From the NCBI GenBank assembly GCA_905178155.1, contig CAJINV010000006.1, positions 4,223,760 to 4,287,759 of the forward strand: a DNA stretch of 64,000 bases, written 5' to 3'. The notes beneath the pieces were generated by a model. That model made no database searches. It was given only the letters and a program-made list of their open reading frames with translations, and had not been told where the DNA came from. The DNA is from Amoebophrya sp. A120. Lineage: Eukaryota; Protista; Dinoflagellata. The position numbers and the translations under genes were made by a program. This document shows positions 1,226 through 64,000 of the stretch, one piece after another (position 1 is the stretch's first letter; each line of letters opens with the position of its first letter).

Positions 1226-4200
1226 TCATCTGATCGCGAGATCATTACAAAAATCTCGATAGCCCACCACCGCTTCCTCCACATTCACCAGATGCCGCAA
1301 CGTCGGTCGCCCGTGCGGGCAGTTCCAGGGCTGCTCCAAAATCGCGAGATTTCCCACAATCTGCTCCATCTCCCGGTTACTCAATTTTTTCCCGATCATG
1401 ATCGCCGAGCGGCAGGCCTTGCTCGCCATAATCGTCCACACCTTCTTGGGCCGCGGCACCTCGGCTGTGGTGCCCTGGAAGGAAATGGTTGCGATGTTTT
1501 TGGCCTTGTTTTCCGGCCCGTTCTCTACTTCCTGGTCCTCGTCGTCCATAATCTTATCAAATGCAAACATGTCTGGGTCTGGAAACTTGTAAAAATGCTG
1601 AGTTGTGAATAGTGAATTCTCTGTGATGCACAGCCAAGCATGAGAAATGTTTGCGCGGCGTAATAGTGTTGCGCTTCCCGCATGGCAAGCTGCGTTCTGC
1701 ATGACAAGAAACGCGGTCTCTTCTTGGACACGCATCACAAACTCTTCAGTCATGCGAGACAGGTATGACACACCTTGTATCTTTCCAGACATCCAGGGAT
1801 ATTTGCAATACATAAATCTCCTCACACAGCAAGTCCTTGTCCGGATCGTCGTTGTCCAGATCGAAAGTCTATCAAATGCAAATTTCGATCTGGGTCTGGA
1901 AAGTTGTAATGTTGTAAAATGTGCATGATGAAGATGTAGTTGAAGAAACTTATTTCTTATGCAGGATGAAAGCATGACAAGATGACAGAACGCTTTCTCA
2001 TACGCACTCCGCAAGAGATGAAACTGCGTTTTTGTACAAAACAAGAGAGAGTACGACTTTTGATGTCTCGGTCATGCAATACAGATTTCACTTAGATTTG
2101 TAAGATTAAGTGTAAAATGTAAGGCCAGCATTACAAGTTCCAGCTTTCCAGACTCATATCGATATTTGCAATGCATAAAGTCCCGCCACTTTCTTCCAAA
2201 ATCGCCAACAGGTCCTCCACGTCCGCCACGTTGAACACAAACCCCTTGCTATCCTGAGTAAAAACGTTCTCACCCCAGAGCCAAGATTGGAAATCTGCTA
2301 CACAAATCAACAAGCTACTTTGGCTGGTGCGCATAACAAGTCCTTTCTTGGCATCACAGTGTAATCCTGTCTAGCTAGTGCTGCCGCATCACAGATCTAC
2401 TAGCATCTCATGCTGATATGAGCATCACATCAAATTTGCAAACACAGCTAGAAACTGCTTCTCATCAGGCTCCGCATGAAAAACATTCGAAAAGCATGCA
2501 GATAATTCGACACATGACAACCCTGAGCGGTGGGGACAACTCTGTAGTTTTTGCAAATGATACTTGCAGCTGGGTACCGCGTGGAGTAGGTATCAAATGT
2601 AAAAATGTCTGGGTCTGGAAGATTGGAAGACTTGTCATGCATATTTTGCATGACCTATGACACCTGTGATGCATGTCTTACCATCACAGATTTTTAGAAC
2701 CCTTCCTGATGCCTATTTCGCATGAGAAATGCCCTCTCCGCGTAGCACAAACTGGGCTCCTCTTGCTGGTCATGCAATGCAAATTTTTTTAGAATCCAAA
2801 AATAGCATTACAAGTTGCATCCTTCCAGACCCAGACATATTTGCAACGCATAGTAGGCACCTTTTCCCAATTTCGTTTTCCTCCTCAAACCTCAAATCGA
2901 ACCCGTTTTTCGCAAACACGGTTTTCGCAAACTCGTTCGCGATCACCTCCTGCGCCTATGGGTGTGTCAGAATCGAAATTGACAAAATCGAAAAACTTGT
3001 GATGCACAAAATCGATATCAGTTGGAGCCTCAGTTTCCAAGTGGCGCATGGCAAATTTCGGGAGCACCCAAATCCAGTCTGTCATGCTGTTTGGGCAAAA
3101 AAGTCTGCTCCTGTCATGCTACTCTGGCAGCGCATTGTATACCCCTAAACAGGCTTGCAATCGGTCTCATTTGCCTGCTCCCCAATACAGGCCATCAGTG
3201 CCCTACATTTTATGCATCACAAATCATTTCGATTATGTCGATTTCGATCCTGACACATCCATAGCGCCGGCGGCAGGGATAACTGGATCGGGTTTAACAA
3301 CTGCTGCGAGTCGATTTTGTTTACGCGGTTCAGGTATCCTCTGCAAAAGTATCGTACTCGTATAATAAATGCAAGTCTTGCATTACAAATCTTGTTTCCA
3401 AGGCAAATCTGCATTACAAGTCTTATTTCTCACGCTGAGGAAATTTGTCATGCATTTATACGAGTGCGATACTTTTGCAGTTCATATCAAGTACTCAAAA
3501 CGCTTTTTCTCATCGCAGGCATGCTGGTCGAAGATGAACAGTTCTTGTTTGTATGATCCCAGGATGAACCCCAGGTTGAACTGCCCATGCACCCGGACGT
3601 GCTGAAAACAAGACTATTGTGAGGAAAAATCCCCCCTCCCCATATCGAAAGGCACCCTTTTGAAAATTTGCGATGCTGATTTGTGGCCACAGATCAGGTC
3701 TGTCTTGCAGGAGAGCAACGCCAGAGCTTCCGCCGCTTGACGCAGGCGATTTGCAATGCTTTTGCGCCAACAGGGCAGACGTCTGCCATGCGGAGCGCCC
3801 ACTTCTAGCCTGCCCCTTCCAGGCTTTAGATCTCCCTGCAGTCCTCTACTGCAAGACAGAGCTGATTTGTGTAGACAAATCCCGCAACACAGATTGCCAC
3901 TTTGACATGGGAAGGGGGAATTTTTCCTGTTCATAAAGATTTGTCGAAGTTCTGGAGTCTGTGCGGGTTGTTTTCCTCGGCAGAGAGGATTTCGAGCTCG
4001 CTGCGTATCCCGTGTGAAAACGTCCCCACAACAGAGTCATCAAGATGGGAATACTGCAAGACAAATCCTGGACTTTTGGGGCTACCGCATGACAAATTTG
4101 TCTGCGCACTGTATCTATTCGGGCCTAGCTAGTCTCGTCGACGCGGCATCACAAATCCATTCTGTCGTGCTGATTCGCGAATTACAGATTTTATTTTCCA

Positions 4201-7200
4201 ATCACCACTAGAAAACGCCTCTCAACATGGAGAGCCGCATGAGAAACATCCTCAGCATGCAGATTTGCATGACAATCTTGACGGGGTGGAAACGTTTTTC
4301 CAAAGGATACCGGGCACGACCGCGTTGTCTTGCCCCGCGAAAAGCACGTCGCTGTCCAATTGCGTCACGGACCCTCCTGCTTATCAACAGGAAAAATCCC
4401 CCCTCCCCATACTGAAAAGGTATATTTTTGGAATTTGTGATGCTGATTTGTGTTCACAAATCGCGTCTGTCTTGCAAGAAGACAACTCCACAGACAACCG
4501 CCGCGTTGGACAGGCGGTTTGTCATGCTGTTCGGCCTACAGCGCGGATGTCATTCATGCTAAGTGCCCAGGCCAAAACCCCTCTACTCACACTTAGTATG
4601 GGCCTGCAGTGCTCTCCAGCAAGACAGCTCGGATTTGTGTACACAAATCTAGCATCAGAAATTTCATTTTGATATGGGGAGGGGGGATTTTTCCTTTCGA
4701 TACTGCTCCCGCGCCGTTCATGTCGTTGTCAGTGCTGTTGTAGTTGTTCCCGGGGGCCCAGGAGGAGACTTGGGTCAAAGCTCCGCACTGGTCCGAATCA
4801 AAACTTTGCTGGGACGAGTCGTGGTTTGATATTATTGCCAGCGAATTTGTAGCCAGGCTCGAGGACGTCGCGGAGGAACCAAACACCGGGAGTGCCAGCA
4901 GCCCTTGTTTGAACTTTTCGAGCTCTTGTTGTTCAGAGCAGCCAAGAACGCCAGCGTCTTCAGAAGTAGGTGACAGGAGTTTATCACTCTGGTCCCCTAG
5001 TACAACTCCTTCCATGAAATGCTGGGGCGACGGCCGCGCTCCCTCAGGTCCGTTTATTTCGCCTGGGACAAGAAGATGATCCTCTGCGAGTACTTCTACA
5101 CAGCAACTCGGCCTTTCCAATTCCGCCCCCTCGGCTTGCATGATCTCGGCGAAGAGCTTTTCCAAATCTGCAAAATCAACCTCCGCTGCGACGCAAGATT
5201 CATCCACCGTAGTAGAGAGCGCACGGGCGGTGGTCGACGAGGACAATGAAGGCTGTACCACTCCTACTATCGCAAGAAAAAAGTGTTTCACCGTAACGTA
5301 CTCCATCACAGGTTTGTTGTACATGACAGAGAAAATTTGCCATGCAAGGTTCCTACGGGAAAAGACAGCTAAAAACTCACTGCCTTGCATGTGTAGCAAG
5401 ACAAACCCTCGTCCTCGGATGCATTTTCTGCATTGCAAGTTTACAGTGAAACAGTTTTTCCCTGCGATACCTACTGCTCCTGCTGACCCAGTTCTTGCAC
5501 CAGCAACAGCTCCTGCCCGTACAGGTGGCGGCACGAGAGATGAGAACATCATAGCGCCAAATTTATCAAACGGCTCGACGTTCTTTGCACCCGCGTTTTT
5601 CGCGCCACTTTCAACATCTTCACCTTCCGGAGCTGTAGGAGCGTTCTTGCGAGGATGAATCATAGCTCCGACGTTGTCCCCGTCAGCAGAGCTTTTTCTC
5701 CTCTTCACCCCACTGTCCACCCGCACAGGGTATTCTGGGTAAAAATGTCCCCACGCGCATAATCAAGTTGGTAATTATCTGCAACACCAGTCTGCAAGGT
5801 GTTGGGAGCTTCTGCATGACAAGTTTGTTCCATCTGTAGAAGTGTAGTGGTGTTTATTCGCGAGGATAGAAGCCGCATCACAAAGACGCAAGCTGATGAT
5901 CTTGGTGCTAACAGCATTTTACAAATCCCAGAACACGACTCCAAATTCCTCTCAAGCAGATGCGCATTACTGATGTAAAGTAAAAGTTCCTGTCGTTGCA
6001 AAGCTGCATGACACCTGGGGGGTCGACGTGGGGACGTTCTTCCTCACGATACGGGAGTCAAATTTCTCAAGGGAGTCGCCACACGGAAATTTGCATTGAG
6101 GTCGCTGCTTGAGCTTGAGGAGCTCGAGTTCAGCATGGAAATCACGTCGGTGAGCAGCACGCCACTTATGGGATTCCCAAACGTTACATTCTCAACTGTT
6201 ACATCATTTGTCATGCAAAATGAGCGTCAACATTCACATAGTCAAGCTACTTCGCATGACAAATTTTAGAAAGGCTAAAAAGCGCCTAAATCTGTGCGGT
6301 ATTTGTCATGCTACAGGTGCAACACGGGCGCAACCTCCCCTCTTTGACTTTTGCCATTCTTGCATTACAAATTCATGTAACAGTTGAGAATGTAACAGTT
6401 GAGAACCCCATACCACTAGCGTGGAGGTTCGGATCCTTCTTTTTCTTTTTCTGCAGCAACTTCTTGTTCCCCTGAATATCACAACTCGTGGCCCCAGAAG
6501 GTGCGCCTCGATTTTTCTCTTTCTTCACCTTCTTCGACTTTCCTTCGCGGCGGCCCTCGTTTTTCTTCTTTTTACCACTCTTCGCAGTTTTATAAAGGTC
6601 CTCCCCTTTATTTTTCATTTTCATCTTCTTTTTCACGACCAATTTTTGTGGCCGGATGATCTTCTTCGGGCGGGAGGGCTGTGGCTGAGCTGGCTGATTA
6701 TCTAGCGCAGCGCCTTGTTTGTCATGATCGAAAACATCGCTTTTGCCTTCTCCCAACAGCTTCTTGTCGTTCTCTTCGAACTGGTCTAGATCTAGATCGA
6801 GTTCTTCGTCCTCCTTGGCAGCAGATTTGTTACCTGACGCTCCGCGTTGTTCTACTACTCCTCGCAGTTTTTCATCATGATCTGCCTTGTCTTGTTCGTC
6901 GTCTTCTAGAAGCTCCAGAAGATCTTCTTCATCTTCACTCTCCTCTTCCTCGTCACAACTGCTGCCATCACTGCTACTACTGCTACTGCCGTCCGAGCAG
7001 TCATCGCTTTCTGGACTGTCTTTGTCAACTTCCGCGTCAAGAAGTACAACTTTTCCGTCTACTCCTGATGTTCCTTCGCTAAGACCCGCGCCGGGTCCAG
7101 CTGTGTAGTCGACCGGGTGGTCTGGTGCTTTTTCTTGCAATAAATCCTCTTTTGCAGGAGCACCAGGACCACCACCTGAAGAGGTGGAACAAAAACCGCT

Positions 7201-10200
7201 AGAAGTAGTACCAGCAGCAACGACCCCAGCTGCACTGTGCGCCCTCAAAATCGCAGTCAGGTCCGTTAGCTGCACTGCGGCGGGGGTTTTTGCTTTTTGC
7301 TCTTGGTGCTCTTGTTCTACTTTTCGGTCATCATCTTCGTCGTCCATGTCGATTTCTACGATCGTGTCCTGGTAGCTGCTCTTGTTGTAATTCCCCCCCA
7401 GCCCCTCAGAAGTTATTAAGTCAATGGTCTCCTGCACGCCGGGATTTCTGCTACGATTCGGCACGGTGTTGAAGCTTTCTAAAATTTCTTCAGGTTCTTC
7501 TTTCACGATTACACTCGGAGCGCGGTCGTCGCTGCTCACGCTTTGCGCATCGTAGTCGTCGCGGAGAGGATGACTGCCTTGCTGATTTACATGTTCCACG
7601 TTTCCAGCAGTTGAAGCTTTTGCAACAAGGGTAGTGCTACTGACTGCTGCCGACTCCGTCTTCCCCAGGCTGCTGCTGCTGCCTAAGCCTAACAAACTAC
7701 TCAGGTCGGTCAGCTTCACACTGCTGGAAGCGGCAGCGCCCGGGCGTACGGAATTTGCTGCAGAGGTAGAAGTTGGAGCGACAGGATCTTCATCTTGCTT
7801 CGGCTTCGCGGTACTAGAGGAAGATGCACCATTAGCCGCTGCGTGATCTCTTAAATCCGCGTCCACCTCGACGACCTCTTCTTCCTTCGTGCAAACCTTC
7901 GCGAAAGCCTCCAGCACCTCCTCCGGCTCCTCCTTCATAATCACGCTTTCCTCATCGTCGCTGAGGTCATCATTGTCGCCGCCCCGAAGCAGCACAGCTG
8001 ACGCTTCTTCTGCAAGAACAACCTTTCGCTTCTTCAGCGCTGGCGACTGCTCCTCGTGTGGTCTTCGTGGGTCTTCAATCTCTTCTTCGTCCATCACGAC
8101 CTGCGGTCGTTGTTGGTCCATTTTCTCCGCGGGGACTTCTTCTTGTTCTACGTCCACACTAAAATAACCGGGCTCCTTGTTCCCCTCCTCCTTCACCGCA
8201 CTACGCGGGTCGAAGCAGTCCAAGCGCCCTTTATGGGAGGTCAGGGCCGTGCTGGACAAGAACATCACCTCCGCCTTATTCTCGTGCTTGTTCTGCACGC
8301 CGGGGGGCTCTGCGGAAACGGAGTTATTTTATCCTGAGTAAAAACGTCCCCACCCCAGAGTCAAGATGCGAAAGCCGCTACACAAATCCCTAAGCTTTGG
8401 CTGTCGCGCATGACAAATTTGGGCTCGCAGTGTAGCCGTGTTTAGCTAGTGCAGCAGCATCACAGATCCAGTTTGTCATTCTGATTCGAGCATGACAAAT
8501 CTCAAGTCACCACTAGAAAACGCCTCTCATGGGTCTCCGCATGAGAAACATTTTAAGCATACAGATTTGCATTAAAACTCTGGGGTGGGGACGTTTTTAC
8601 AGAGGATATATTTGACGTTTTGTTCATCTCCGGGTTTGGGGAGGACACCGATACCAACGCTGCTGGTGCTTCTGCTTGCTCCTCTGCTTGTACTGCGAGG
8701 ACCTCCGCAAGATTCAACATCTGCGGCGCGTGGATAATTTTTCCGTCTGCCAGAACTATCCGGAGTAAAAACGTCGCCACCCTACAGTCAAGATGGGGAA
8801 TCTGCTGAACAATTCAGCCAGCTTTGGCTGAATTGTTCAAATTTCAAAACACCACTAGAAAAATTCTTTCCATGGGTCTCCGCCGCATGAGCAATATTTT
8901 AAGGATGCAGCAGATTTGCATGACAAGTCTGGGGTGGGGACGTTTTTACATGGGATAAGAACTGGCACTGCTTCATCTTCTTGTACTATCTTCTCGGGAA
9001 GTAGATCCGCGTCGTTTCTTTCCTTTTTCTCGTTGTCGACCTCAAGAACAGCGTCCATAAGCGGCTCCGCAGCAGGTGGACGAGCCACACGACCCTGGCC
9101 ATCATCTACTTCATCACTCGACGCAGCGAAATTCATCAGCGGGAGCACCGCGTTCTTGTAGTTTTGCCGGTTGTTTAGAGTTCCGCCAAAAGGATAAGCA
9201 CACCACGATCCGGCCGTCGGTTTTTTCCCCACGACGTCTGACCCCGGGACGTGCAGCTTCATCCAATTCACCACTTCCCGGCAGATCAGCGCTTCGTGCT
9301 TTAGGTAAATCGTCTTCTTGTCCGGCGTATCCAGTGCAAATGTGTCTGGGCCTGGAAGAACGCAAGTCTGTCATGCTTATCTCACATGACTCTTGAATCT
9401 GTAATGCGTGAGCAGCAGGAAAAAAGCCTCTAGCCTGAAAATGCAGGCTGTCATGCGGAAAGCGAAACATAAAAGAGCCCCGAAACTTGTCATGCGTGGC
9501 TGCGTGTCCGTGTCGCAAGTTCTTTCAAGACCCGGTCAGATTCCAATACGTACGGCGTGATGTTCACGTCCACATCATGGTTTGCGCACTCCAAATTCAG
9601 AATCGCGACGGGAAAGACCTGGCCCGACGCGTACTTCTTGAATTCTTCGTTTACGGTTTTCAGTATTTTCTTCGTATGACAGTGCACAACTACCCCCCTC
9701 TATTTTTGCATGAACAGCAATACAAACGCCAGCGACTCTGGAGCTTGTGCATTACAAATTTATGTAAACTTACTGTACGTACTTTGTGGGCAGCTTTCGA
9801 AATTTGTCATGCACAATTAGTGACACACGGAAGCAATTGGAGTTGAGATTTTGCATGAGAAATGAGAACGAGGGGGACTTCTTGTTGTGCACTGTCATAC
9901 TTCGGAAAGGGGTCGCACAATCGGTAGTTGACGAAGAAAATCTGCCAATTTTTTGACTTCTTCCCACCGTTCGACTGGGAAACAAGCCCGGTGATGCGGA
10001 AGTTGTTGTTGTTGGACGGGCTAAAAACTGTGGCTTGCTGTTCGTGTACGAGTGGTGGTGGTAAAAGCGCACCACCAGCAGCCGTCCCGGCTAGAACTAG
10101 TTCCTGCTCGGTAGTTTCATGTTGAACTACTTGAGCGGGGGGCAACATCATAGTAGAGTTCACCAGGCCTCCGCCCCCTGCTGGACCACCACCAGCACCT

Positions 10201-13200
10201 CCACTTCCGACGTTCAAGTCCACTTCGACCGTATTCTGCATATGGAAGTGTCAGGATCGAAATCGACAAAATTGAAATGATTTGTCATGCATAAAATGCA
10301 GCCCATAAAGTGCCTGTCTTGCAGAGTAAGGAAGTGAGGCAGATTGCAAGCCTGTTGAGGGGTAGAAACTGAGCTGCTAAAGTAGCATACCAAAAGGCGT
10401 CTTCCATAGTACCCAAACAGCATGACAAACTGGGTCTCGGCTCTACCGAAATTTGTCATGCGCCACGTGGAAACTGGGTTACAACTGGCCTCCATTTTAT
10501 GCATTACAAATCTTTCGATTTTGTCGATTTCGATTCTGACACTCTGATACTGCAAGTGCTCCCCATACACGGCCATGCAGGCCTGTTTAAAACTTCTCGC
10601 ACATTATGGAAATGCCAGGATCTTCGAAATAGAGAAAAGTGGAAATGATTTGCCAACATGCATAAAATGGATACTAGCTGGAACGACCCAGTTGTTCCTC
10701 CGAAAAAAAGTGATACGCATGACAAAACTTTGCAAAACCGAAATCCGACTGGTCATGCTGCTTTGGGAAAAAACACTGCTTCTGTCATGCTACTGGAACA
10801 GCAGTTCCATCCCAGTAGACCCCAAACAGGCTTACTTACCATCGGCCCGAAGAATTTTTCCCTGCGGTACAATACAGGCGCTTGTTCGCGTCTTGCATTT
10901 CTTGCAGATGACAAATCATTTGAACTTTGTCCATTTCGATCCTGAGCCCTCCATACACAACCGCTCGTCCGCAGCATCTCTTTCGTTTCGAACTTCTTCG
11001 TCTTCGCGTTAAATTTTTTGTTGTGGATCACAAACTTGGTTAGGTAGTTACACGCTGCAAATTTCTGCAGCAGCTGCATCGTTTCCTGCAACTGCTGCTT
11101 CACGTTTCGCACGAATTCCTGGCGGCGGACCGGGGTAATAGAAAAGAGGTTCGTGATCTCGATTTTCGTGCCGTGCGACGTTTGCAACACCTGTTCCTGC
11201 TTCACCAGATTCCCCTGGCGATCGTATGTGGCTTGCAGGGCGAACTTGTTGGTGGAATTCGTGCCTGCACTGTTGAGGTTCCTTTCCGCTGTGAACAAGG
11301 CGAGGGCAGAAGTTGCACTACTGCCCCCAACAACGTCGGACTCCAGCTTCGTATTCGCCTTTTTACCTGCGTTTATCATCCCGCGCGGCGCCGCGGGGGC
11401 AGGTTCTAATATTTTCCGCCCTAGAACAAGATGTCCAGAGTTGGAAGTCGCCCCGTCATTTTCATTTCTTTCCGACAGCGAGACCAAAGCGCCCGAAAAA
11501 TCCCCACGCGCACTTTCACCCCCCGCGGTAGTACTTCTTTCCACTATCGGTACCAAACTGGTTTCGTTGCTCATAGGTAAAAAACAGTCCGCAAACTTGG
11601 TCGTGACCACGAATTTTTCCGATAACGCGCAGCAAGCCGCTAGTGCTTCCCCGCGGAACCCAAACGTTTGACAGGGGGTGGGGGATGAAGTGGAGAAAGG
11701 AGGATCTGCAAGAGGAACTTCTGATGTGTCTGTCATTGTACAACTGATTGATGATGTGGTCGTGGTCGTGGTCCCTGCAGGTAGTTTATTTCCACCGACT
11801 TGATGTGAAGTCGAAGATGTCCCGTACAGTTCCTCCACATTCCGCAGTTTGGAGGTGCAGTGCCGCAGACACACGTTTGGCAGATCAGCTTATCCTGAGT
11901 AAAAACGTCCCCACCCCAGAGTTGTCATGCAGATTTGCAAAGACAGTAAAACTTGTAACGCGCATCCCCATGAGAGCCATCCCCAATCGTGTTTTGGAAT
12001 TTGTGATGCTGCAAATAGGATGAGGAGATGGCTTTGTGATGCGGCTGTCCTTGCGAAACTGCACTACAACACAGAGGGGAACTTGTCACGCATGACTCCC
12101 AAAACTTCCGGGTTTGTGTTGCATTTTTCCCATCTTGACTCTGGGGTGGGGATATTTTTCCTCACAATACAGCTTCGCAAATCCCGATCCCGTCATCGAC
12201 GATCACGAGGCCGTATCAAATGCTAGTATGTCTGGGTCTGGGTTTCTGATGCAGGACCTCAAGGACAACAAGATCTGTAATGCAAGAACACCATCGGCCA
12301 GAATTTTTGTTGTGTTGGATGGCAGTTTGTAATGCTAAACACGAATGAACCCGCAATAAGCCGAGGATAACTTGTCATGCTGTTATGCCGTAAAAGAAAC
12401 CAGTCTGCAATGCAAGTATCAGCAACACAAGTTTCCGGACCCAGACGTATTTGCAATGCATAACCCGTCCACTCCCGACTCGAGAAACGTGATTTCGATT
12501 TTCCGGGCCCGCGCGTCGAGGGAATTCTCTACGAGTTCTTTCACGCAGGTGTCGAGACTGATGATCACCTGGTTCGTGCAGATCGTGTGGATGGTATCCT
12601 GGTTCAACTTCTGGATCCGGCTAGCTGTCTTGATCGGAACTATGGCGGTTGAGATTGGAACATGGGGTGCTGGTGCGGGTTTTCTGCCTAGTACAACCGG
12701 AGGCTTGGTTGCCGGTGGTGGTGCGGCGCTTTTCATCGTCGTTATTTCCTGATGTGGCTTTACTGCCTGGAATGTTGACGAAGAAGAAGATGCTGCCCCC
12801 TTCGGTCCTGGTCCCGCTGTAGCGGCCTTTGTTGATATAATTTCGCCGCCCTGCAGTTTCTCTTCCACCTTGCCCGCGTGGTCCTGCAGTTTTTTCTCAC
12901 CAACCCTCGGCGCGGGCTTGGATTTGGAAGCCGAAGTAGTTGCGGCTTTGATCGTGCTCTCACCCTGCGACATCTGCGGTTTCTTCGAACTTGCACCTGC
13001 AGTTGCCGACGTCTTCGCCTGCTTAGGATTCTTGTTTTCAATATTTTTACCCGTCTGCTTATTGTTTATTCCACTGGCATTCTGCTTGTTTTCCTGCTTG
13101 TTCGCGCCTGTTGTCGTACCCTTTTTCGTTTTCCCGGCTGGAAGGTCATTACCATCCTGCTCCCCCGCGGCCGGACTCGATTTTACTTTCGGTGCTGCTT

Positions 13201-42912: not shown

Positions 42913-43722
42913 GAAACTGAAGATCAGGATGATTGTCGGCGTGACGAGCTACCACGCATGACAAATTCACACACGACCGCGGTGGTACCGACCACAGCGG
43001 AGACGATGGGTTATACTTTTGATTTAAATGTAACTTGACTAGATGAAGAAGAACCCGATTTACAAATGAAACCTAAACGCAAACGGAAGGAATGCGGTTG
43101 AAAAACGTTTCTGTACAACTTTAAATGCACATGGAACAAGCCGTCCGATCATTTTTTCACTGAGAATGCTTACTGTATTACTTACAAATGTACGTCCACA
43201 CTATTGCCGCTTTTGTCAAAAAAATAAGAACTCGCGTCAACGCCGGCGCTCCTCCTGCTGCCGTTCATGATGCAGATTGGTTACGGTCGCCGGTTCGTGC
43301 CGAAGCTTGTTGTTTCTCTCCATTGGGCTTGGGCTTGGCCACGGTTTTCACCGGAAGTAGATCAAGGTCGTTTCCGCTCAGAAAGATCAACTGAACGCTC
43401 AGGAAGACAGGAACTCATTTCACCTTGGATTTTTCAGGCTGGTGATTTTTTGTCAAGAAAAGCGAAACACTCTCTCGGTCTACTCCTCGGTACTCGCATG
43501 GCGTGTAGAAGCTTTCCGGGTGCTGAGTGAGGATTATTCCCATCCGAAGATCCTTCGCAACTGCTTTTCATAGCATTGTTCTTCTAGAGCTGGCGTAAGA
43601 GCGAATGTATGGAAGTCGGTACGGAGCCTTAGCCCCTTATCTTGTCTAACTCTTCTTCAACATTTTGCATTGACTCCTCCATTATTTGCCATGTAGTTTT
43701 TGATACGGTAGCATGAGAAAAA

Positions 43723-48600: not shown

Positions 48601-51600
48601 GTGCGTTGTTGTTGGAATTCGATAAGCGGACCAAATTCGCCCGAATGCGGTCGCTTAAGGATTTACTAACCACCCGGAAGGACAAAGACCAAACGGTAAG
48701 GGAGTTCGTTCAGCGGAAACAAAACATCTTTCGAGATGACCTGGGCGGTGAAGTCTTCCGCAGCGAGTTGATGACTTTCGGATGCTTCTACAACCTCGGG
48801 AACGCCTTCGATTCTTTTATCATGCCGCACGTCATTCAGGACAAGCCGGACAATGATAATTTGTTGAAGTTGGCGGAGGAGTGCGAATCCGTCTTGAAAG
48901 ACGGGGGCACCGAAGAGGACACCGCAAAGCCCGCTTCTCTCAACTTGACGCAGGCCGATCACAAAGCGATCGCTGCTGAAGTTGTTGCGCAGAAGGGGAA
49001 GAAGGGTGGACGCTGGGTCAACAAGAACCAGCACCCGTACAAGAACAACAACCAGAAGAACAACAAGGGCGGCGGAAAAGGAGGCAAGGGAGACCAGCAG
49101 AAGGGAAAAGGCGGCGGTGGAGACAAATCCAAGATCAAATGTCACAAGTGCAAGCAGCTTGGACATGTTCGTAAGGATTGTCCCAACTGACGAAGCTGGC
49201 CGGGTTCCGATGAGAATTGTCAAATTTCTCATGCTGCTAAACGTCGAAAAACCGATGTTGCTAATGTTCATGTTTGTGAAACAGGCTCTACTTCTGGTCA
49301 AAGTAGTAATGTTACATGCAATCAAAAACTACAATCTCCCTCTGTGTACAATGTCGAAGTACTTGAAAGCAAAACAAATGTATTTGAGACAGCACCTATA
49401 TCCAATCAGTGTGTACTTGAGACTGCCTCTATTTCCGATGAAAAAGCATCTATTTGTAAGATTGAAGATTTGCCGTTCGCTCGTGATTCAAAATTAAAAG
49501 GTACTACATGTAAGATTGAAGCTGAAAAATCTCTACTTGATTCCGCTCGTGTTAAGAATGTGAAAGTACCTAAAATGAAAGAAAATCCATTACAAAAAAT
49601 GCCTATTCTGCATGGGGTTTCGCGCTTGTATGATCCTAGCAATTTAAAAAGAAAAGCGAACCCGCATGAGATGGCAAAGAACAAAAATTACGAGGTGGCA
49701 GATTCCGCCCGTAAAGCAGAAGGAAACTGCATGGATTGGACTTATTTTAACTTGTGCAAGTTTGTAGGGGAATCATGCAACGGGGTGAAAGATCAGCAAA
49801 TTTTTGATTTTGCCGATACTCCTAAGGGCTTCACTGTCTTGGTGCATGGTCACCACCAGGGCAGGGACAAGAAAAACGAAAACCAGGAGGCACAAGACTG
49901 GTTTGGTGATTGGTCAAAAGAGCGGGAAAAGGGTCAAACAGATCAAAACGGCGAAAAGTCCGCCGGCGCTGTTTCGTCTTTGACATTTGCACTTTTGTCG
50001 AAGGGAAACGGGAAAAGCGCCCATGGGATTACCATCCGCCCGGATGGTACTCAAACAACGGCAGTTGTTGATAGTGGTGCCTCGCACCACATGACAGGGG
50101 ACTTGAGTTGTTTTCAGATTGTGTTTTGGGATGATCCAGTAACGTTAACGGTTGCCGACCGAACGTTAGACACTCCCGCCTACCGTGGTTACTTCCACCA
50201 TAACTCTTTAGGTTTAATGGGTGGTCTATACCATCCTGACGCAAAGTTGTTTTTGGTGTCGGTAAGTCTTTTGAACGACGAAAATGACTGCCGGGTAGTT
50301 TTTGAGGGGAGAGACGCGCTCTACCTCCAAAAGAAGAAAACAGGTTTCAAAATTCCGATGCGCCGGGACACTTTAACAAATTTGCCGCAAATAGACTTTG
50401 CGTTTCACAGCTTGAGCGAGCTGGATACGGCTGGCGATTTACAAAACGGAAAGAGCCGGGCCGCGTGGTCCGAGCCAGCATTTGTGAATCTGACTCGTGC
50501 CGATCGTCTTCGACAACATGAAAGGTTTGGGCACTTTCATATTGACGGTCTTGAATATGGACGCTGTCCGTTGTGTGACTTAGCGAAGTCGAGGCAAGAA
50601 GGGTGTAAGTCAGAACGTCCGGAGCACTGTAAGCCAAAGGCTTGGCTAGATCAAGTGGATTGGGATCATACCTACGGTTATCCTTTGGGTCTTGATGGGG
50701 AGAAATTTCTTTTGTCAGGGGTGGAGACATTCCATGGCTGGGTAGAGAATTATCCTCACCGGGAAAAGGATGAAGCGTGGAAAGGTCTGCGTGAGTGGTG
50801 TTTAGAAGTTGGAAAGCCCAAACGGGTGAGAAGCGATAACGATCCTACTTTTCGAGGCGAGAAAAGTGACTGGAGAAAGTATTGCTTGAAGCAGAGTCCT
50901 CCGATCGAGCCAACTACGTCTGCGCCGTTTACGCCGCAACGTAATGGAGTCGTGGAACGGTGGAACCAAACTTCGAAAAATGCCCTGCGGGCGAATATGA
51001 TCGGGGTTGATCCTCGTCTTTGGCCATATTGTTCAAAGTATATAGCCTGGACTTGGAATCGGTTAGCCCGGAAAGAGCAAAAGAGTCCATTTGAAAAAGT
51101 TCACGATCGCGCGCCTTCGCTCAAGTATTTCAAGAAATTCGGAGTCCTTTGCTATGCTCGGAAGCACGTTACGAAATCGACGGACTTAGGTGCGCTCGAT
51201 GTTCGGTATGAACGTGGGGCATTCTTGGGGTATTCGAAAAACTCTTGCTATTTAGTGGGTGTTTGGCGTGACGACAAACGAACGAAAGTTGGATTAAGGT
51301 TCACTGTGATCGAAAATAGATCCTGCAAGTTTGACGAATCTTGTACGATCGCCGACATTGACGATCTTCGCGAAAAGAACCGTGGCACCTTTGTACCCTT
51401 TGCCGCACCCGACAAATTGCGTGTGTCGAACATGCCTGATCCGTTGGTGGCTCCCTCGGGAAGTCATGAGCCCGATCAGGATGCTCCGCGTGACCAGGGT
51501 GATTCGGGGCCCAATGGGGCTACTGGAGACCAACAGGTCGAGGAAGGGGGCAAAGCAGTGGAAGGGGGCAAAGAGGAAAGTGCTGCGCAAGCAGAGGAAG

Positions 51601-54600
51601 AGGTAGTTATTCCCGAAGCGGAAGAACTTGACGAACCTCCCGCCCGCCCAAAGCCCAAGGTCGTCAAGAAGAAAAGAAAGCAAAAGCCGAAGCCTGCAGT
51701 CGTGGTCAACAACAAAAAGGGTCGCCCGAAAGGTTCAAAGAACAAACCGGGAAGCAAAAAGCCAGGTCCTAAGCCAAAAGCAGCAGAAGCTGGAAACGTA
51801 TTTCAGTTGCCTGATGATTTTGACTTTGGTCGAGACTTGGACGAGTACCATGCCAAGCGCATTGAGGAAGAAGGTGAAGAAGTTTTTGCTCATGTGGTGT
51901 CACTCACCAGAGCGCAGATTCTTCGAGATCCTGATGCTCCGAAGTACATAGAGGCCGACGATGTTGAACGACTCAGACTTTTAGCAAAAGAGTGCTGGAC
52001 AGTAGACGAGAAACCACAAAAAGGCGACGAAGTTGTGCCGTCGTGCGTGATCTACACGAAGAAGAGATGTGGAACATACAAAGCGCGGCTGGTGGCACTA
52101 GGAAACTTACAGTCGAAAGAACTCTGTGGCGAAATTTACAGTCCTACCATTTCGCACGCAGCTAGTAGAGCCCTACTTGTTGACGCTGCTGCAAATGGGA
52201 AACGGATCAAATTTTTCGACATTTCAAATGCGTTCATTTGTGCGAGTTTAGGTGACGAGCGAGTTTTCGTGCGTCTTCCGAAGCACTGGAGCACTGATCC
52301 GAGAGGTGATGTCGTGCGCCTACTGAAGTCTCTTTATGGTCTTCGAATTAGCCCGCGTCGTTGGTTCGATACCTACAGGAAGACTTTGGAGGAACTAGGT
52401 TGGAAGATGTGTGAACGGGAGCCGGGGTTGTTCCGTAAAGGCGTTCTTACGTTGAGCGTGTACGTGGATGACTGTGTCATGAGTGGTGACACGGAAGAAA
52501 TTCTCGACAAAGAGATGGGGAAAATTTTGGACAAATTTCCTGGAAAAGTGATCCCGCCGAAAGCGAAACCAGGTGAAAAGGGTTGCGAAGTTTACGACCT
52601 CCTGGGGGCCACTCTGGAATACAACGCATCGAAAAAGACCATGAGGATCCACATGGCAGAGGCTATTGACAGAGTTTTGAAGAAATTCAATATGGTTGAT
52701 TGTCGGGGAGTTGCTACGCCTGTACTTCCTGGAAGACAGTTGCCAGAAATTCAGACTACTGAAGTTGATACTTCTGCACCGGAAACAAAATTCCCATTGC
52801 GTAGCCTCGTGGGTAGCCTGCAATATATCGCTTGTATGTGCAGGGTAGACATTGTCTACGCGGTGCAGCGTGTTGCAAGAGAAGTAGCAAATCCGACACC
52901 CCAAGCGGTGAAAGCAGCAAAACGGATTTTGGCCTACTTGAAAGCAACTCGGGAGATCGGTTCAGAATACTCGCCAAAAGCTGAAGAAGATTTTCGCACG
53001 GTTTACACCAAAGTGACAAAGGAGGCCAGTCGGGATTGTCCTGATTTGTGTGCTTTCAGCGATAGCGACTTTGCAGGGTGTACAGTTACACTGAAGTCCA
53101 CCAGCGGTAGTATCCTGTATTATCGTGGTTGTCCAGTCGCTTGGTCGTCAAAACGACAGACAGTCCGTGCTTCCAGCACGTGTGAGGCTGAGTATGTTGC
53201 GATTCATGACACGATCAAAATGTGCTTGAGCCAGGGCTGGTCAGATTGGTTTATGGAAACTGAAGGGGAAACGCTTCCGCTCATTTTCACAGACAATCAA
53301 AGTGCGTTAAGTCTCAGCAAGAGTAGTATCATCACTAAGCGTTCCAAACATATTGACTTGCGTTATCACATTGTCCGTGATCATTGTCAGGATTTGTGTT
53401 TTGTGCCGACAAAAGTAAACAAGGCCGACCCCCTGACCAAGGGCCTGCCTGGTGAAAAATATTTGTCTTTGTTCAAGACGGACCCAAAAGCAGAACTTCA
53501 CACAGTGCGCGCGTTTCATGTGTCGACTGACCTTCGGCCCATTGTACTAGAGCCCGCCACTGTTATGATGTTGACTGCGAAGCTAAGTAAAGCATCTGGA
53601 TTGACCATCCAGATCGAAGGAAAGCCCTACGACTTTGCCTAGTCGTTTGTGCCAAAAAGGAAGGAGGAATGAGGTATATGCTACAGGTGAACAGTGGTTA
53701 CTATAGCTTCGGAAGGGGGAATGTTGGATAGATCGGAATCATAAATGACCTAGTGACGATCAGAAGCATACTACGATGTAAATCGCGATGCAAATCTGGT
53801 CTGATGTCAAATCCCTCGGGCTTGTAGTGCCCTCGATCTGAAATCCATGATCCTCCTCCGATAGCCGTAGCCATCCTGTTTGTCATGCATATTGTCCATC
53901 CTCTTGATATCTCATCACACCCCTGCAGGTTGCGACTAGTACCCATACTAGTGCGTCGATAACAGATAGTAAACACACAGTGACTCGTAGTCACTTAGTA
54001 CTGCTAGTGCTTGTTCCCATCTCGTTTACCTCTGTTGTTGCTATCGTGCGTCTAGGCTTCTAACACATGCATAGGCTGGACATGTGCTGGTGTTTGTATT
54101 GCTGTTCATGCCATACAAATGAGGGGGAAGGGGACGAGTTGTGCACTTTCATATGGGGAAGAAGATCAGGCCACCGTGTTGGACATCCGCGACGAGGACC
54201 AAGAATCCGAGGAGGAGCTGGAATTGCACGACGGGGCGGTTGTGAAAAATGCTGGTGAGGATGGCGTGAAGATCGTCCGGCAGAAAGTGGATGAGGAGGA
54301 CGAAATCATGTATAGAATAAAGTGTTCTTTTTGCTTTCAGCTTATTTGTCATGCATCATAGACACTAGTGATTTTTTATTTCAAGCTGTCTGCATAGTGA
54401 CGCACGCATGACAAACTCAACACTTCTCAAGGTCGCCGCCGCTCTCGCCGGTTTTGGCAGCGGGGGATGTCGTATGAAGTGCAGAAGTATCGTACTAGTA
54501 TAAATTGCATTACAAATTTTCGCAGCATGAGAAATAAAATTTGTAATGCTGTAATGCTGTGGCGCCACATCCTCTTCCGCAAACGGAAGCGCAAGAACGA

Positions 54601-56044: not shown

Positions 56045-57176
56045 TTGAACATTCGTTTTGAGCTAAGAGCAACCGGCGATCTTTGTCGTGCATTGAAAAC
56101 ACCAAACATAAAACATCGAACAGGTACGTTACCTCACCCTGGTACCTCCATCGGGGGAGCTTCATGCAGACAAGAAAACCAGACACGAAGTAGAGTTATT
56201 GCGAGGAAGAAGAAATACGGTTGAAACAAGAAAAGAAAAGCTTCCAGTTTGTATCAGGTAATTGCGAGGAAGAATTCCAGTTTGTATCAGGTAAAGCTTT
56301 TTGCTTGACGCGACCATGAGGTTTTTATGCACGACCTTCTCCTGCATGCTCTCAGTAGATCACTGTCTCTTCCTGTTGCTGAGCATGAGAAATGCGAACA
56401 TTTGAAAAACAGGTACTGCTACTGAAAAACGTCGTTACTGACCTGCGGGGGAGACGCAATTCTCCGGTATAGAAGTTGTTTTGCTGCACCCAAGCGCATA
56501 TCAAATGTAAAAGTGTCTGGGTCTGGAAGATTCTGGGACTTGTGATGCATGTTTTGCATGACCCAGGACGTCTATAATGCACGCCCTAGCATCACAGATT
56601 TTTAGAGGGCTTCCTGATGCCTACTCCGCATGACAAACGCCCTCCCCGCGTAGCACAAACGAGACTCCTCTTGCTGGTCATGCAATACAGAGTTTCTTAG
56701 AGTCCGAAGTTAGCATCACAAGTTCCACTTTTCCAGACCCAGACATTTTTGCATTTGATAGCGCATTTGTCCACAACTGAATCGGCGCGTGGAATGGCGG
56801 TTCTGAACATTTGGAAAGAGCTATCAGCAACCGATCTTCGTCGTGCATTCAAATAAACATCAAAAATCAAACAGGTACAGTACCTTACCCTAGTACCATC
56901 GGGTAACTACTTGCAGACGAAAAAACAGACACGAAGTAGAGTTGTATATTGCGAGAACCCCAGCGTCAGAAGAGGAACAAGAAAAGCTAGAAGAGAGAAT
57001 TTCACTATGTCTCAGGCATACTATAATTTGGGTTGACACCGACACGCATGAGGTTTTTATGCACGTGCATACTCTCAGTCTCAGTAGATCCGGTCTTCCT
57101 GCGCATGAGAAATGCGAAAACTATGAAAACAGGTCATGAAGAAAAACGTCGCTACCTACCTGCGGGGGAGACGCAG
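56045..57176. repeat. Diverged direct duplication (about 400 bp x2) flanking introner 56499-56760
   Basis: Shared blocks GTCGTGCATT, AACAGGTAC, CAGACACGAAGTAGAGTT, CATGAGGTTTTTATGCACG, CTCAGTAGATC, GCATGAGAAATGCGAA and ACCTGCGGGGGAGACGCA at about 56045-56458 and 56805-57176. Confidence 0.75.
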
Positions 57177-58272: not shown

Positions 58273-61200
58273 ATGGTCGTCGTTCGCAGAACCCATAGCC
58301 GCCGAGGCGGATCGCTTTCTTCGGCCGCGAGATGCGCCGGGGCTTGTCACGATGATCTGCAATGTCGTGGTCGACGGGTTCTTCAGTTGCTTGTGTGTCT
58401 GGTCGTGGTCCAGCAAGGCGCGGCAGAACCGGCCAGCAGTTGGAATGGCAAAGGAAACATCGTGATCCCGGTTCACTTATCAAATGTAAAAATGTCTGGG
58501 TCTGGAAGGATGCGAACTTGTGATGCGTGTTGCGGATCATACAAAAATCTGTGTTGCATGACTTGCAAAAGGTCCCCATTTCTAGCCATGCCGGGGGGGG
58601 ATTTCTCATGCAGAATAGGCATCACCAAGGGGCTGCAGAACCTGTGATGCTAGGCCCTGCATTCGAGACTTGGCGGAGCTTGGAAAAACTGCATGACAAA
58701 TCTCAGAATCTTCCAGACCCAGACATTTTTACATTTGATATCACTTTGCGAAGGAGAATAAATCTTCTGGCGTTCTTTTCCACGGAACCGCACAAAGACC
58801 AATACTACCGCAGGAGAGACAACAAGTATCGGAGGAAAAGAACGTTGTGGCCGATCTCCATGATCCCTCCCATACCGCCTCCACCACGCTTTTACTCGAC
58901 CAAGCCCGGCCGCTGGTCCAGGTGACGGTATTGCAAGGAAAAATCCACCCTCCCCATATTGAAAAAGTACCTCCTGAAAATTTGTGATGCAGATTTGTGA
59001 CCACAAATCCTGTCTGTCTTGTGAGAAGGCAAATCCAGGCTTTGTGCCACGCTATGCAGGCGATTTGTGATGCTGTAAGGACTACAGGGCAGCCGTCTAC
59101 CGTGCTAGGTGGCTACACCAAAAGGCACCTAGCCAGGCTTGCGATCTGCGTGCAGTCCTCTACCGCAAGACAAATCTGAGCTGTGTACGCCAATCCAGGA
59201 TGACAGATTTCCTTTTCGATATGGGGAGGGGGGATTTTTCCTTTTGATAGACGGTGGGCACCAACCAGAACCTCTCCCTCGTTCTGGACTCCCTGAGTCC
59301 GAGTGTGACGCTTTTCACGACGGAGAGCAAGGTGAACCAGTGCGGGGTGAAGGCGGATGCGTGTTTCCAGTTCGCAGGCCGGGGAAATGGCGTCGAGGAT
59401 GAGAACGACCAACAAGGGGTGCTGTGCCACTTGGAAAAAGACACAATACCGTGCAGACCAGGTACTATTTTAGTAGAGGACACTGTATCTGGTACTGAAC
59501 ACCGGCTGGTGCTCTCCGTGATGCGAAGTGCTGCATGACACTCACGGTCTTGCATGACAAATTAACAGGTTCCGGTGTTTTTCTCTCCTGCAAGGAGCCG
59601 TTCCTGCCCCCGGACGCGTTTTTCACGGACTCCCACTACGGCGAATCCTAGCCATTGTGAATATTTGTCAGGGTGGTCCTCTGGAAAGTTGAAATGCTTC
59701 TTTAAGCAGGGTACCTGTAGACGACAGTATTTACTACACACAACACTGTCACAGAGTTTCTACTGCATGGGTCTGCAGCGGTGCCGCTGTGCCCGGGGTC
59801 TGCAGCGGTGCCGCTGTGCCCGCAGCCCCGGTGCCTGCGTGCACGAGAAATCGCGTTTGTTTTCCCTGGCGGACCTGCTCTTCCGCAACCTGCATATTAG
59901 ACAAACACAATTTATTGCAGTCTTATTACACTCGCATTGTACAACTCTATTTCCAGACCCAGAGACGTGTTTCCACGGGATAAACCCATAACCCTGCCCG
60001 TCGACGGCAACGACTTGACAACCACCAGCGCCGAGGGCATTGCCGGGAAGTTTTCTCTCCGCGAGTCGGTTTTCACCATCGCAAACGCGCCCATGAGGTT
60101 TGTGAAGGGCTTGGACGTAGGTAGTAGTTCTGACACGGTTAGTATGACAGGAAAAAAGTGTTACAGTAGTTACACATTGTGTAGTTGCAAGACCGGCAAC
60201 ACAGACAACCTTTCTCATGCAGGAAAGGCTTGGGAGCCTCGTTTCCTTCCTGTTTTCCCTTATGATCTTCGCATTACAAGTTTTCTCTGCCACACAGAGA
60301 AAATTTGTGATGCAGAAACTACTCCAACAAATGTGTACACTTTTTTCTCGTCATAGTTAGAAGTAGAAGGACTTCTTCGGCGACAAGAGAAACCGCAGAG
60401 GGTACCGATTCTGGCGAGTATCAATCAAACCCCTATAACCTGCTCAGGTGTTACAATCTCAAACGTTACAATAGAATCTAGAATTTGTGTTACATGATGA
60501 GCATGACAGACTCGCGCAGCGTTCCACCTTTTGCAGTACAAATTTCGCCAGATTGTAGTGCGGTTTAGGGGTCCGGAACTTGTCATGCGCAATCCTATGA
60601 GAGTTGGCTAGATCATGCACTCTCGCATCACAGATTTCCATATTCTATTGTAACGCTTGAGATTGTAACACCTGAGCGGGTTATAACCCCGAGCCCAACT
60701 TTTTCGCCGGTTTTTTCGGGCTCGCCAAAGCGTCCGCTGGCTGCCGCGACCGGGGGTCGGGAGTCTGGGAGAACATTTTGCGGGCGGTGAACGGCGAGAA
60801 GCGGAACTTGCGAAACGAGGATCCGGAGTGGCGTTTGAAGCTGGTACCGCCGAAGCATTCGCTGTTTTACGAAGAGAGGGGGAAGGAGAACTCGTATCTG
60901 GAAATCGTAATGAACAAGCAAGTTCCTCTACTCGAAGATCAGGAAGAACAAGATCGCCAAAAACATCGTCCGGCCATTTCTAGCAAGAACAACGACCCAG
61001 TGGTCCTCCTCTACTCGGAACCCCGACAGCAAGACAAGTACATTCATTCTGCCCGGTTCGGGGAGTTTTTGATGTACAACCTCCAGATTTGCGGCACGAT
61101 ATCAATTGCAAATAGGTCATCTGGGTCCTCTGGACGATTGGTGCAAGGTTTTTGTCATGCAAGTTTCGCATCACCGCACAAGGTTTGGAATCATGCGCCG

Positions 61201-64000
61201 GGTTCTAGCATCACAAGTTTTGAGAAGTAGCCTTTTGTTTCTCGATGTTTATTCTGCATGAGAGATTTTGGGTTATCGGGTAACCAAAAGTAAGTGGGCA
61301 TTCGCATTTTTGCTGGTCACGCAATACAGATGTTTGAGTCGAGCAGACCTAGCATAAGAAACCTTGGAGCGGTCTTGTGCAGACCCAGACGTATTTGCAT
61401 TGAATACACCGACATTTTCTACAACCTGTCCTCCAACTGGCTGGTGCAAATCGACACGCGTTCCGTCGTATCAAATGTAAAAATGTCTGGGTCTGGAAGA
61501 ATCCGAAATTTGTTATGCTGTTTTTGCATGACACAGAATGTCTGTCATGGAAGCCCAAGCATCACAGATTTTTAGAGGCCTTCCTGATGCCTAGTCCGCA
61601 TGACAAAGGCTCTCCACGCGTATGCGGCTGCGGATGCGGCCGGGTGGTAGTTAGGAAGTGGAGCAAGTATCCACCTAGGGGTATTGGCAGAGGCTAAATC
61701 TGTTCTAACGCCCAGGTATTGGCAGAGGCTAAATCTGTTCTAACGCCCACCCGCCAGGAGTAAAATGGTTACTACTACTACTACTACGCGTAGCACAAAC
61801 CGGACTCCTCCTGCTGGTCATGCAATACAGAATTTTTTAGAGTCCAAAGTTAGCATCACAAGTTCCAACCTTCCAGACCCAGACATTTTTACAATTCATA
61901 CGTCGGCGTGACTCTGCCAAAAATCCTCTACGACCGCGTGCTAGCGCAGTTGGATTTGGCGAACGTGTTTGATTGCACGTCGACCACAGGTGAAAGCAGC
62001 ACTCTAAAAATATCTGGAGCACATATTAAGCCAATTTTCCCCTGCCGGATACGCGACGGTGTGACGGCGCAGACGGGGTACCGGGAAAATTTGAAGCAAA
62101 ATCTCCCGATTTTGTCTTTCGCGCTGGAGGATTTGGGCGAGGAGAGTTTTTATCAAATGCAAAAATGTCTGGGTCTGGAAGAATGCGAGTTTGTCATGCT
62201 TGTCTGGCGTGACTCGACAATCTGTGTTGTATAGGGACGAAAAGGCCCCCTTACCTGTCATGCAAAAACGCAGTTTGCCATGCGGAATACGTAAGACATG
62301 GCAGCCAACAAATTTGTCATGCATAGGTGCGCATCTTTGCAGTGCGTTTATCATTCACTTTTAGCATTAGACCCAGACATATTTGCAATCCATAGTTTTC
62401 TCACCTCAACACCAGCCTCGGAGCAGCTGCAGCCGTCTTCTTCTGACGACGGAAGAAATATCGTCGGAGATGAAGTTGAGGTGGATCAACATCACCATGA
62501 TGGCCATAATCAACATCTGCTAGATGAATATTACCAAACCCCCGCAACTAGAGGTACATCAGCTGCAACTTCTTCTACCCGATTGCAACTCCCGCTGGCT
62601 CATTTGGTGCTCTGTGACGAAAGCAGTGCTAAAAGTGGAAGCGCTTCTCCTGCTCGTGCTATCTCTTGCTACCTCGCGCTCAGCTGCGCGGGTGGTTGTG
62701 AAAGAAATAATGGGGATCATCTTGTTCACAGCGGAATAAATGACGGCTCTAGAAGAAGAAGTAATGGAGGTGACAGCAGCAGCGGTGCAGAAGCAGATAC
62801 GCTCCAGGACAATGACAACGATGGGATTCCGCAGACCGGGTCTTTTCTCTCCGACGACGGCTCTGTATCAATTGCAAATGATATGTCTGGGTCTAGAAAG
62901 CTGTGATGCTGTATTGCGCATGACTGCAACGCTTGCAGTTGCAGCCAAGCATGACAAACTTTCGGGCCGCTTTCTGCTGCCCGACGCGCATATACGAGTT
63001 GCGTTATTTTGCGTAACAAGGGAAGGAGCTGCTCACTTGCTGCTCATGCAACACAGGTTTCCCAGGAATGCAAGACACGCATTACAAGTTCCACCTTTAT
63101 TGCAGACCCAGACGTATTTGCAACGCACACTTCGACGACAGCATCGATTTGTCGGCGCAGCACATCTCCTTCGGCAGTCTCGCGGTGTCCGCATTTGAGA
63201 AGCTGGTTTTCAAGCAGAACTATCGAAAAGAAAAATCCCCCCTCCCCATATCAAAACGAAATTTCTGATGCTGGATTTGTGTACACAAATCCGAGCTGTC
63301 TTGCTGGAGAGCACTGCAGGCCCATACCAAGTGCGAGTAGAAGCGTTTTGGCTTAAGCACTTGACATGAAAAACGTCCGCGCTGTAGGCCCAACAGCATG
63401 ACAAACCGTCTGCACAGTGCGGCGGTTGTCTCCGCAGTTGCGTTCTTATGCAAGACAGACACGATTTGTGATCACAAATCAGCATCACAAATTTCCAAAA
63501 ATATACCTTTTCAGTATGGGAAGGGCGGATTTTTCCTTTCAATAAGAACCGGGTAGGGTTTATGCTCCTTACTCGACAAGACGAAGGAACTACATCGAGT
63601 TTCAACGACGAGAACGCGAAGACCAGTCAGTGGGGGCACACACGACCAGGCGCTGTAGTTTCAGTGGCCGAGGAGCACCACCAGGATCTTCCACGTGGTA
63701 CCAGTGGTAGTTCTCCAACCGCGTCTACCGTCGGTATTACCCCCTCATTCGACTTGCAGCAGGAGCAGCAGCCAACAGAAGGACCAAGAACTTTTCACAT
63801 CCCCATCGCGGCGACGCCTTTCGCCGATCCTCGTGGGGAACAGTCACGACCAAAAATGGCAGTCACTCGTCGTCCGTGGCAAGAACAGGTTCAAGGCACA
63901 GGGCAACCTCCTGCTCCTGCTAGTGCTCCGACTTCCACAGGCGGTATGCAAGAAAATAACCGTGTAAAAAGTGTAAGTATAGTGTATCATGATGCAGAAA
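58273..64000 (+). CDS. Secreted or membrane pepsin-like (peptidase A1 fold) protein with degenerate catalytic motifs; runs off the window
   Basis: Hydrophobic leader, VQVTVGTNQNLSLVLDSLSPS (lobe 1), AGFFGLA, WLVQIDTRSVGVTLPKILY (lobe 2), LPILSF. Introners at 58478-58740, 58929-59249, about 59465-59590, 59649-59982, 60143-60355, 60434-60685, 61100-61406, 61469-61900, 62151-62394, 62866-63129, 63221-63544 and 63945 onward. Confidence 0.6.
61623..61785 (+). mobile_element. Short retroposon-like fragment with (ACT)n tail nested in a family A introner
   Basis: 7-bp TSD ACGCGTA (61616-61622, 61786-61792) and an internal 35-bp tandem duplication. It is absent from the sibling element at 56499-56760. 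Confidence 0.75.

Follow-up and report, generated by a model that had tools for sequence, protein, structure and literature searches.

The window analysed here, a stretch of 64,000 nucleotides from the eukaryote Amoebophrya sp. A120 (contig CAJINV010000006.1), is crowded with inserts of 143–350 bp that start with TAT and end with ATA, each lying between the two copies of a 5-bp duplication. These elements are introners of the type published for Amoebophrya A120, described in the text of Farhat et al., 2021 (PMC7789003) as being about 240 nt long, falling into many families, bordered by inverted repeats (TAT, seven variable bases, As) and by direct repeats of 3–5 nt, and removed without GT-AG; the same text reports no transposase for them. 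The elements of the window agree with this description in their ends, with A at 0.78–0.88 in positions 11–13 (TAT being preset by our caller), in the 5-bp duplication at their borders, in their removal without GT-AG (as judged from the best joints of presumed-RNA contigs) and in their organization in families without internal transposase (370 elements in 104 subfamilies). One short word, GCATBACAA, recurs among them on both strands at positions that follow the helical repeat of DNA, and its pattern of conservation points to a role in the mobility of the elements. The introners that we refer to below are as follows (no strand is assigned to them; matrix sites are matches of at least 9 bits to the weight matrix of the word, weaker matches being marked by their score).

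1555..63999: about 70 introners with terminal inverted repeats, nine hand-defined families, 17.0 kb in total of 64 kb, 328 matrix sites
4382..4702: family B element, 321 bp; an RNA contig skips the element plus 5 extra bases
5731..6051: family C element of a gene on the minus strand; sites all antisense (no sense site of at least 6 bits), exact splicing
8330..8608: family C element, spliced out; its four strong sites are antisense, and a weak one (8.4 bits) is sense
8757..8957: shortened family C element with only antisense sites; exact splicing
9675..9899: family I element, 225 bp
10241..10549: family G element, 309 bp
21282..21492: family E element of 211 bp that is spliced out
22138..22320: the only member of family J, which has one site and is spliced out
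30691..30839: family D element, 149 bp; reverse sites come after the forward ones, a layout opposite to that of family A
30915..32136: family G element split by a motif-free insert of about 0.9 kb; RNA contigs skip 1227 nt exactly
33098..33349: family A element cited in the preliminary description of this DNA; its one forward site follows five reverse ones
33407..33668: family A element, 262 bp; the offsets of its forward sites are 90, 129, 183 and 214, with 31 bp from the third to the fourth
60434..60685: family F element, 252 bp

Elements were also called without use of the motif, on the terminal repeat and the duplication alone (TAT being required), which gave 370 elements, mostly of 140–330 bp, 48 of them in the window and 322 in related loci. 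The latter, 147 loci from a pattern scan amounting to about 500 kb after removal of overlaps, have the same top words as the window; having been picked via a family A repeat, they bias the counts that include them toward this family. Splicing was read from the contigs of four runs of one study, presumed to be RNA, with the 15 best-supported joints taken per listing; at all 26 element joints among these best-supported ones, the element and 5 nt are skipped. Where the two copies of the duplication are mismatched (27259–27582, 27904–28200, 28289–28561 and 29349–29600), the RNA can be seen to be cut, in the sense direction, 1 base ahead of TAT and 4 bases past ATA. The RNA contigs retain a micro-exon of 10 nt (28836–28845) between an introner and a canonical intron, and exon pieces of 22–25 nt between introners are also present. 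In the window and the related loci, the gaps between adjacent introners are very often of just 26–85 bp, tighter than the nucleosome-linker insertion model suggests.

The commonest 9-mer of the window is GCATGACAA, with 81 copies (45 on the plus strand and 36 on the minus strand), while GCATCACAA, GCATTACAA and GCATGAGAA are found 32, 29 and 23 times, respectively. Among the 142 exact copies of GCATBACAA, 131 fall in the hand-annotated elements, in which the shorter GCATBACA occurs 183 times versus 4.2±1.8 in 30 dinucleotide shuffles. The learned matrix, HGCAWBASARRY, is wider than the 9-mer of the preliminary description and leaves base 5 nearly free; its 328 sites in window elements compare with 11.5±2.4 after shuffling, the exact-word counts being the cleaner test as the matrix was trained on the same elements. 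The word is present in all nine window families, and at least one site is found in each of the 370 called elements and at least four in 326 of them (some hits lying in the outer terminal repeat), with an average array of about five sites on both strands. Site density in the related loci reaches 20.9 per kb in called elements, versus 0.43 in long frames and 0.78 in the remaining DNA. In 17 element-free coding stretches of the window (14.4 kb), we found six matrix sites and two exact words; three strong antisense sites within 800 bp of a single gene (40811, 40975 and 41591) account for half of these exonic sites. The preliminary description had put forward that one word is common to every introner family on both strands, including families otherwise dissimilar, that it is rare in long exons and that 33098–33349 has eight CATG or CATC cores. 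These statements hold: groups with no other interior similarity carry the word, the cores are seven CATG and one CATC, and the k-mer check that it proposed, made here on the elements of the window, gives counts far above dinucleotide shuffles. Describing the word as "sprinkled" was right as to its presence and an understatement as to its arrangement, since the positions of the sites are ordered.

Same-strand spacings peak at 31–33, 52–54, 83–85, 93–95, 104 and 124 bp, i.e., near 3, 5, 8, 9, 10 and 12 helical turns. The best period is 10.35–10.4 bp with a mean cosine of 0.37, against 0.03±0.03 for randomised positions, so that the phasing of about 10 bp for which a check had been suggested is borne out against a null; the value is 0.22 without the 29–34 peak, 0.36 without family A and 0.35 (against 0.02±0.07) when each of 37 interior-homology groups contributes a single element. 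All 13 groups that comprise several subfamilies show positive phasing, the opposite-strand offset, fitted apart in eight terminal-repeat classes, is 1.2–2.9 bp, and the phase relative to the ends is consistent in eight of nine classes (R 0.78, p about 0.004). Counted from the element end, the first sites are found at 36–37 or 45–48 bp when pointing outward and at 47–53 bp when pointing inward, and coherence amounts to 0.43 for pairs inside one half of an element versus 0.21 for pairs spanning its centre. The orientation of the sites depends on the family (reverse first in A, forward first in D, one-way in C), and a module of 31–32 bp, with a degenerate reverse copy in its middle, is dominant. 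Once the sites are masked, strong-strong dinucleotides of the spacers are in antiphase (SS z −7.1), with weak-weak dinucleotides at WW z +2.8 and AA at z about 3. Between interior-homology groups, spacers have no detectable similarity; the interior homology seen between some terminal-repeat classes was misclassification by the calling pattern.

Sequence conservation follows the word. Mismatch to the consensus is 0.02–0.09 at core positions, 0.132 in spacers and 0.138 at base 5, and the core is below the spacer in all 19 subfamilies with at least five copies; motif positions thus diverge more slowly than spacers, as the comparison proposed in the preliminary description was meant to reveal. In trees of the 11 subfamilies with at least nine copies, the core-to-spacer rate of change falls from 0.51 on terminal branches to 0.26 on internal ones (p 1.4e-6), with the internal value being the lower in 10 of the 11. 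The inner terminal repeats undergo the same shift, a comparison of private and shared alleles gives the same result, and copies with the fewest private changes are near neutrality (ratio 0.82, 33 vs 84 changes). Stronger constraint on the branches that leave descendants is what one would see if damage to the sites kept copies from propagating further, albeit an indirect indication, and host purifying selection could produce part of it. Mismatch between the two copies of the duplication did not work as a proxy for age.

The word is also found outside the introners, at the following annotated places.

30104..30256, plus strand: canonical GT-AG intron that contains the word once, at 30236 (8.7 bits)
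42956..42964, plus strand: isolated strong site, about 45 nt past the stop of an 896-codon frame ending at 42909
47528..54065, plus strand: Copia-like long terminal repeat (LTR) element inside a family I introner (47384–54153), at a motif copy, with the duplication CATGC; one site per LTR (47687 and 53880)

Regarding the outside occurrences cited in the preliminary description, those at 30236, 42956, 47687 and 48024 exist, while the one at 48109 is a weaker variant below the 9-bit cut-off. Its extension of the word to the copia LTR and leader was not sustained: the interior of this element has four sites versus 1.7±1.0 expected, the LTR hits are one duplicated site, and these sites are not clearly above chance. 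The remaining window DNA outside elements contains 31 matrix sites versus 11.5 expected, and the nested inserts none in 2.1 kb. In the non-element DNA of the related loci outside open reading frames, strong sites are 7-fold enriched (68 vs 9.4 expected, with the 6.5-kb locus L039 of another assembly included in this background count and excluded from later tests). They are mostly isolated, 59 of the 70 strong sites of the remainder being more than 40 bp from any recognised element. Two non-coding repeats of the window that are 68% identical and have no terminal repeats (56100–56460 and 56855–57175) have one strong site each and no Rfam match. As for inserts nested in introners (examined at 30915, 41080, 47384, 54473 and 61469 of the window and in loci L019, L026, L049, L050 and L073), 8 of 10 land at or duplicate a motif site, as judged by eye, with no null and with sites covering much of each element. 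One insert family occupies the same position of family G in two loci (31186–32074 of the window and L019:505–1608).

Such an array might act in RNA, as a branch point, an intron-definition site or the pairing arms of a zipping hairpin, and the preliminary description had proposed the word as the missing cis signal for splicing. The core of the word resembles the branch consensus yUnAy. Counting against a role in DNA, three of the window's five canonical introns, one of them supported by RNA and two inferred, carry the sense word 12–21 nt before the AG, but the larger intron set did not bear this out: among 101 ab initio canonical introns, the calls being noisy, just 16 have a site (4 sense and 18 antisense sites), 85 have none, and in 3 a sense site lies no more than 51 nt from the AG. 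The gene strand could be called for 230 of the 370 elements (the calls being right in 34 of 34 window cases), and 199 of the 230 have sites on both strands, as pairing arms would; yet neither strand is preferred (573 sites are sense and 599 antisense), and 16 elements are antisense-only and 15 sense-only. Family C is oriented 9 times one way and 11 times the other, and a 4.8-kb contig skips five of its elements whose strong sites are antisense, two of them without any sense site of at least 6 bits and three with a single weak one. Likewise, a family G element is spliced exactly even though a motif-free insert of 0.9 kb separates its last site from its end. In-register pairing with an opposite site is predicted for 222 of 610 sites in 120 sampled elements, core bases being predicted paired at 0.75 versus 0.58 for spacers, but in family C for only 2 of 43 sites, and base 5 shows no covariation, with mismatches at 19 of 19 mirror sites in one subfamily and 25 of 41 in another. 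Hairpin pairing was hence rejected as a general cause, as was a branch point or intronic splicing element, given the absence of strand bias, the splicing of antisense-only elements and the rarity of the word near the 3' ends of the ab initio canonical introns. An Rfam scan of the window gave no match. That U1 was not found in these genomes, according to the text of PMC7789003, would favour an RNA signal; helical phasing has no meaning in single-stranded RNA. Since there is no strand bias and elements free of sense sites are spliced, the array is read as a DNA-level feature. The word most likely acts at this level rather than as an intron-definition signal, and we consider an RNA signal highly unlikely.

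Acting in DNA, the phased word could serve the host after insertion, by positioning nucleosomes or a histone-replacing protein or by keeping introner-filled genes expressed, and would then be maintained by host selection. The period of 10.35–10.4 bp and the antiphase of spacer GC to AA do resemble the nucleosome dinucleotide pattern, but AA/GC periodicity did not itself favour nucleosomes in the same account (PMC2943623), and dinoflagellates are described as largely devoid of nucleosomes (PMC11453091). In C. elegans, intronic DNA with a 10-bp period is reported to protect genes (bioRxiv 10.64898/2026.08.08.743475). The span of the introner array is not fixed and varies with the family, and neighbouring insertions, often less than 85 bp apart, follow no 10.4-bp period. 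The surplus of isolated sites in non-element DNA and the residual constraint on terminal branches fit host selection; the doubling of constraint on internal branches, in parallel to the inner terminal repeats, and the near neutrality of the copies with fewest private changes speak against it. Taken together, a chromatin role of this kind appears unlikely to us. The least likely explanation is that the word is a functionless relic, left over from a single ancestor made of a 31-bp repeat and its inversion: the dominant module with its degenerate reverse copy midway and the loose likeness of the outer terminal repeat to the word would be in keeping with such an origin, but the conservation of particular positions in all 19 subfamilies while base 5 stays free, spacers without detectable similarity between groups and a phase that holds while the order and orientation of the sites vary between families all speak against it.

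We thus favour as probable that the phased array is a scaffold for one shared DNA-bending protein aiding the pairing of the element ends for transposition. The sites, phased by about 10.4 bp, would bind this protein on one face of the duplex, which would help to join the two ends of elements of 150–320 bp into a paired-end complex. The inner terminal repeat (bases 11–30) would be, family by family, the site of a specific transposase, the word being the site common to all families, and it would be the element ends, rather than the word, that govern removal from RNA. Protein binding, bending or wrapping of the DNA and service in end pairing are steps that we infer from the array. As the inner terminal repeats differ by family and the word is shared, a shared factor is indicated, and the common trans-acting factor evoked in the preliminary description is supported by the conserved word, its free base 5, its presence across dissimilar groups and its helical phasing, though not in an intron-definition role. 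Mobility is favoured among the roles then offered, constraint being stronger on internal than on terminal branches.

Regarding the nature of the binder, we lean slightly to a host or shared accessory protein over the transposase itself. The excess of the word in non-element DNA points to a host protein, while the precedent of Emigrant (see below) and the loose likeness of the outer terminal repeat to the word (13% of ends with at least 6 bits versus 0.2% shuffled; loose in classes A, D and E, none in B, C, F, G and I) lean to a transposase. A more daring and rather doubtful idea is that dozens of unrelated transposon families have converged on one sequence-specific DNA-wrapping protein of the host, possibly part of the histone-poor chromatin of dinoflagellates, the phased code along their whole length being a licence to jump. 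If true, the word would be a direct bait for the introner mobility machinery and for a new chromatin protein.

Several points weigh against a scaffold for end pairing. Terminal branches remain constrained (0.51), which fits unsampled propagation and also host selection, and transposition by itself does not account for the excess of isolated sites in non-element DNA. A single lattice joining both ends would predict quantised lengths, and the lengths of the elements show no quantisation at 10.4 bp (R 0.06, 33 subfamilies), so that the register seems to be set at each end separately. Class D is weakly phased, only 4 of the 14 singleton groups that could be tested are positive, and the signal is not significant when each family is represented by one element and the 29–34 peak is removed (0.06±0.06). 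None of the 94 long frames matched a transposase family in a Pfam scan, no binding protein was found, and the families may share a remote ancestry invisible to BLAST. Of note, a search for long autonomous elements gave just nested inserts and adjacent pairs, and viral contigs gave no hit for two terminal repeats and two hits for the two-site pattern, chance-like in coding DNA.

This result separates how the roughly 30,000 introners of Amoebophrya move from how they get spliced: the word looks like a signal for movement, and the splicing signal is pushed to the element ends. The 31-bp two-site module is a defined bait for the putative binding protein, with built-in controls (the free base 5 and half-turn insertions), and the word is a simple marker for finding autonomous partners.

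Other features of the window and related loci deserve mention. In the Copia-like element, frames of 360 and 1483 codons lie in the same frame with one stop between them (49188–49190), an arrangement that suggests readthrough of this single stop. A tandem array of roughly 30-bp units (34150–34900) lies apparently in an intron of the gene starting near 32964. Between 23100 and 26600, two GC-rich blocks flank an AT-rich stretch, with an inverted repeat at 24684–25024; this region has no Pfam match and little contig cover. In a related locus, the frame L016:579–2078 has a C5 cytosine DNA methylase domain (Pfam E 1.7e-37).

With regard to known systems, the elements themselves are already published, and what is new here is the branch-wise constraint, the RNA-backed strand test and the null-tested phasing. 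Figures aside, the text on A120 introners (PMC7789003) describes terminal and direct repeats and no shared internal word, phasing or strand test. Such a word was likewise not found in the text of the other literature searched (PMC12130899, PMC9860276, PMC11453091, PMC11282704 and the preprint of Roy et al.), the supplement figures of PMC7789003 and files 13–14 of PMC12130899 being places that could bear on novelty. The IS3EU/GingerRoot DNA transposons share TA..TA termini with introners but usually have a duplication of 6 bp (PMC10045372), as opposed to 5 bp here. Like the introner arrays, the periodic A/T clusters (PATCs) of C. elegans are transposon-derived intronic DNA matched to the helical repeat (bioRxiv 10.64898/2026.08.08.743475; PMC4947018); PATCs, however, are A/T clusters over extended stretches and are said not to be short protein motifs, whereas the introner array is a word of high information in DNA of roughly 50% GC with weak AA phasing. 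With nucleosome positioning sequences, the introner spacers have in common the antiphase of AA/TT and GC at about 10 bp. The closest functional parallel is with the subterminal repeats of miniature inverted-repeat transposable elements (MITEs), at which the transposase binds cooperatively and distorts the DNA in Emigrant/Lemi1 (PMC1636448), the same source citing such subterminal binding for Sleeping Beauty, pogo, CACTA and hAT. Several short sites in both orientations, set distances inside both ends and a constraint that appears tied to propagation are features of the introner word as well, which, judged from its sequence, would work like these repeats, a likeness by which we do not claim that it belongs to their class. 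The Emigrant-type repeat is part of its family's own terminal repeat and its binding has been demonstrated, whereas the introner word is known here from sequence; moreover, unlike subterminal repeats, it is shared across families with different inner terminal repeats and laid out on an element-wide lattice of 10.4 bp.

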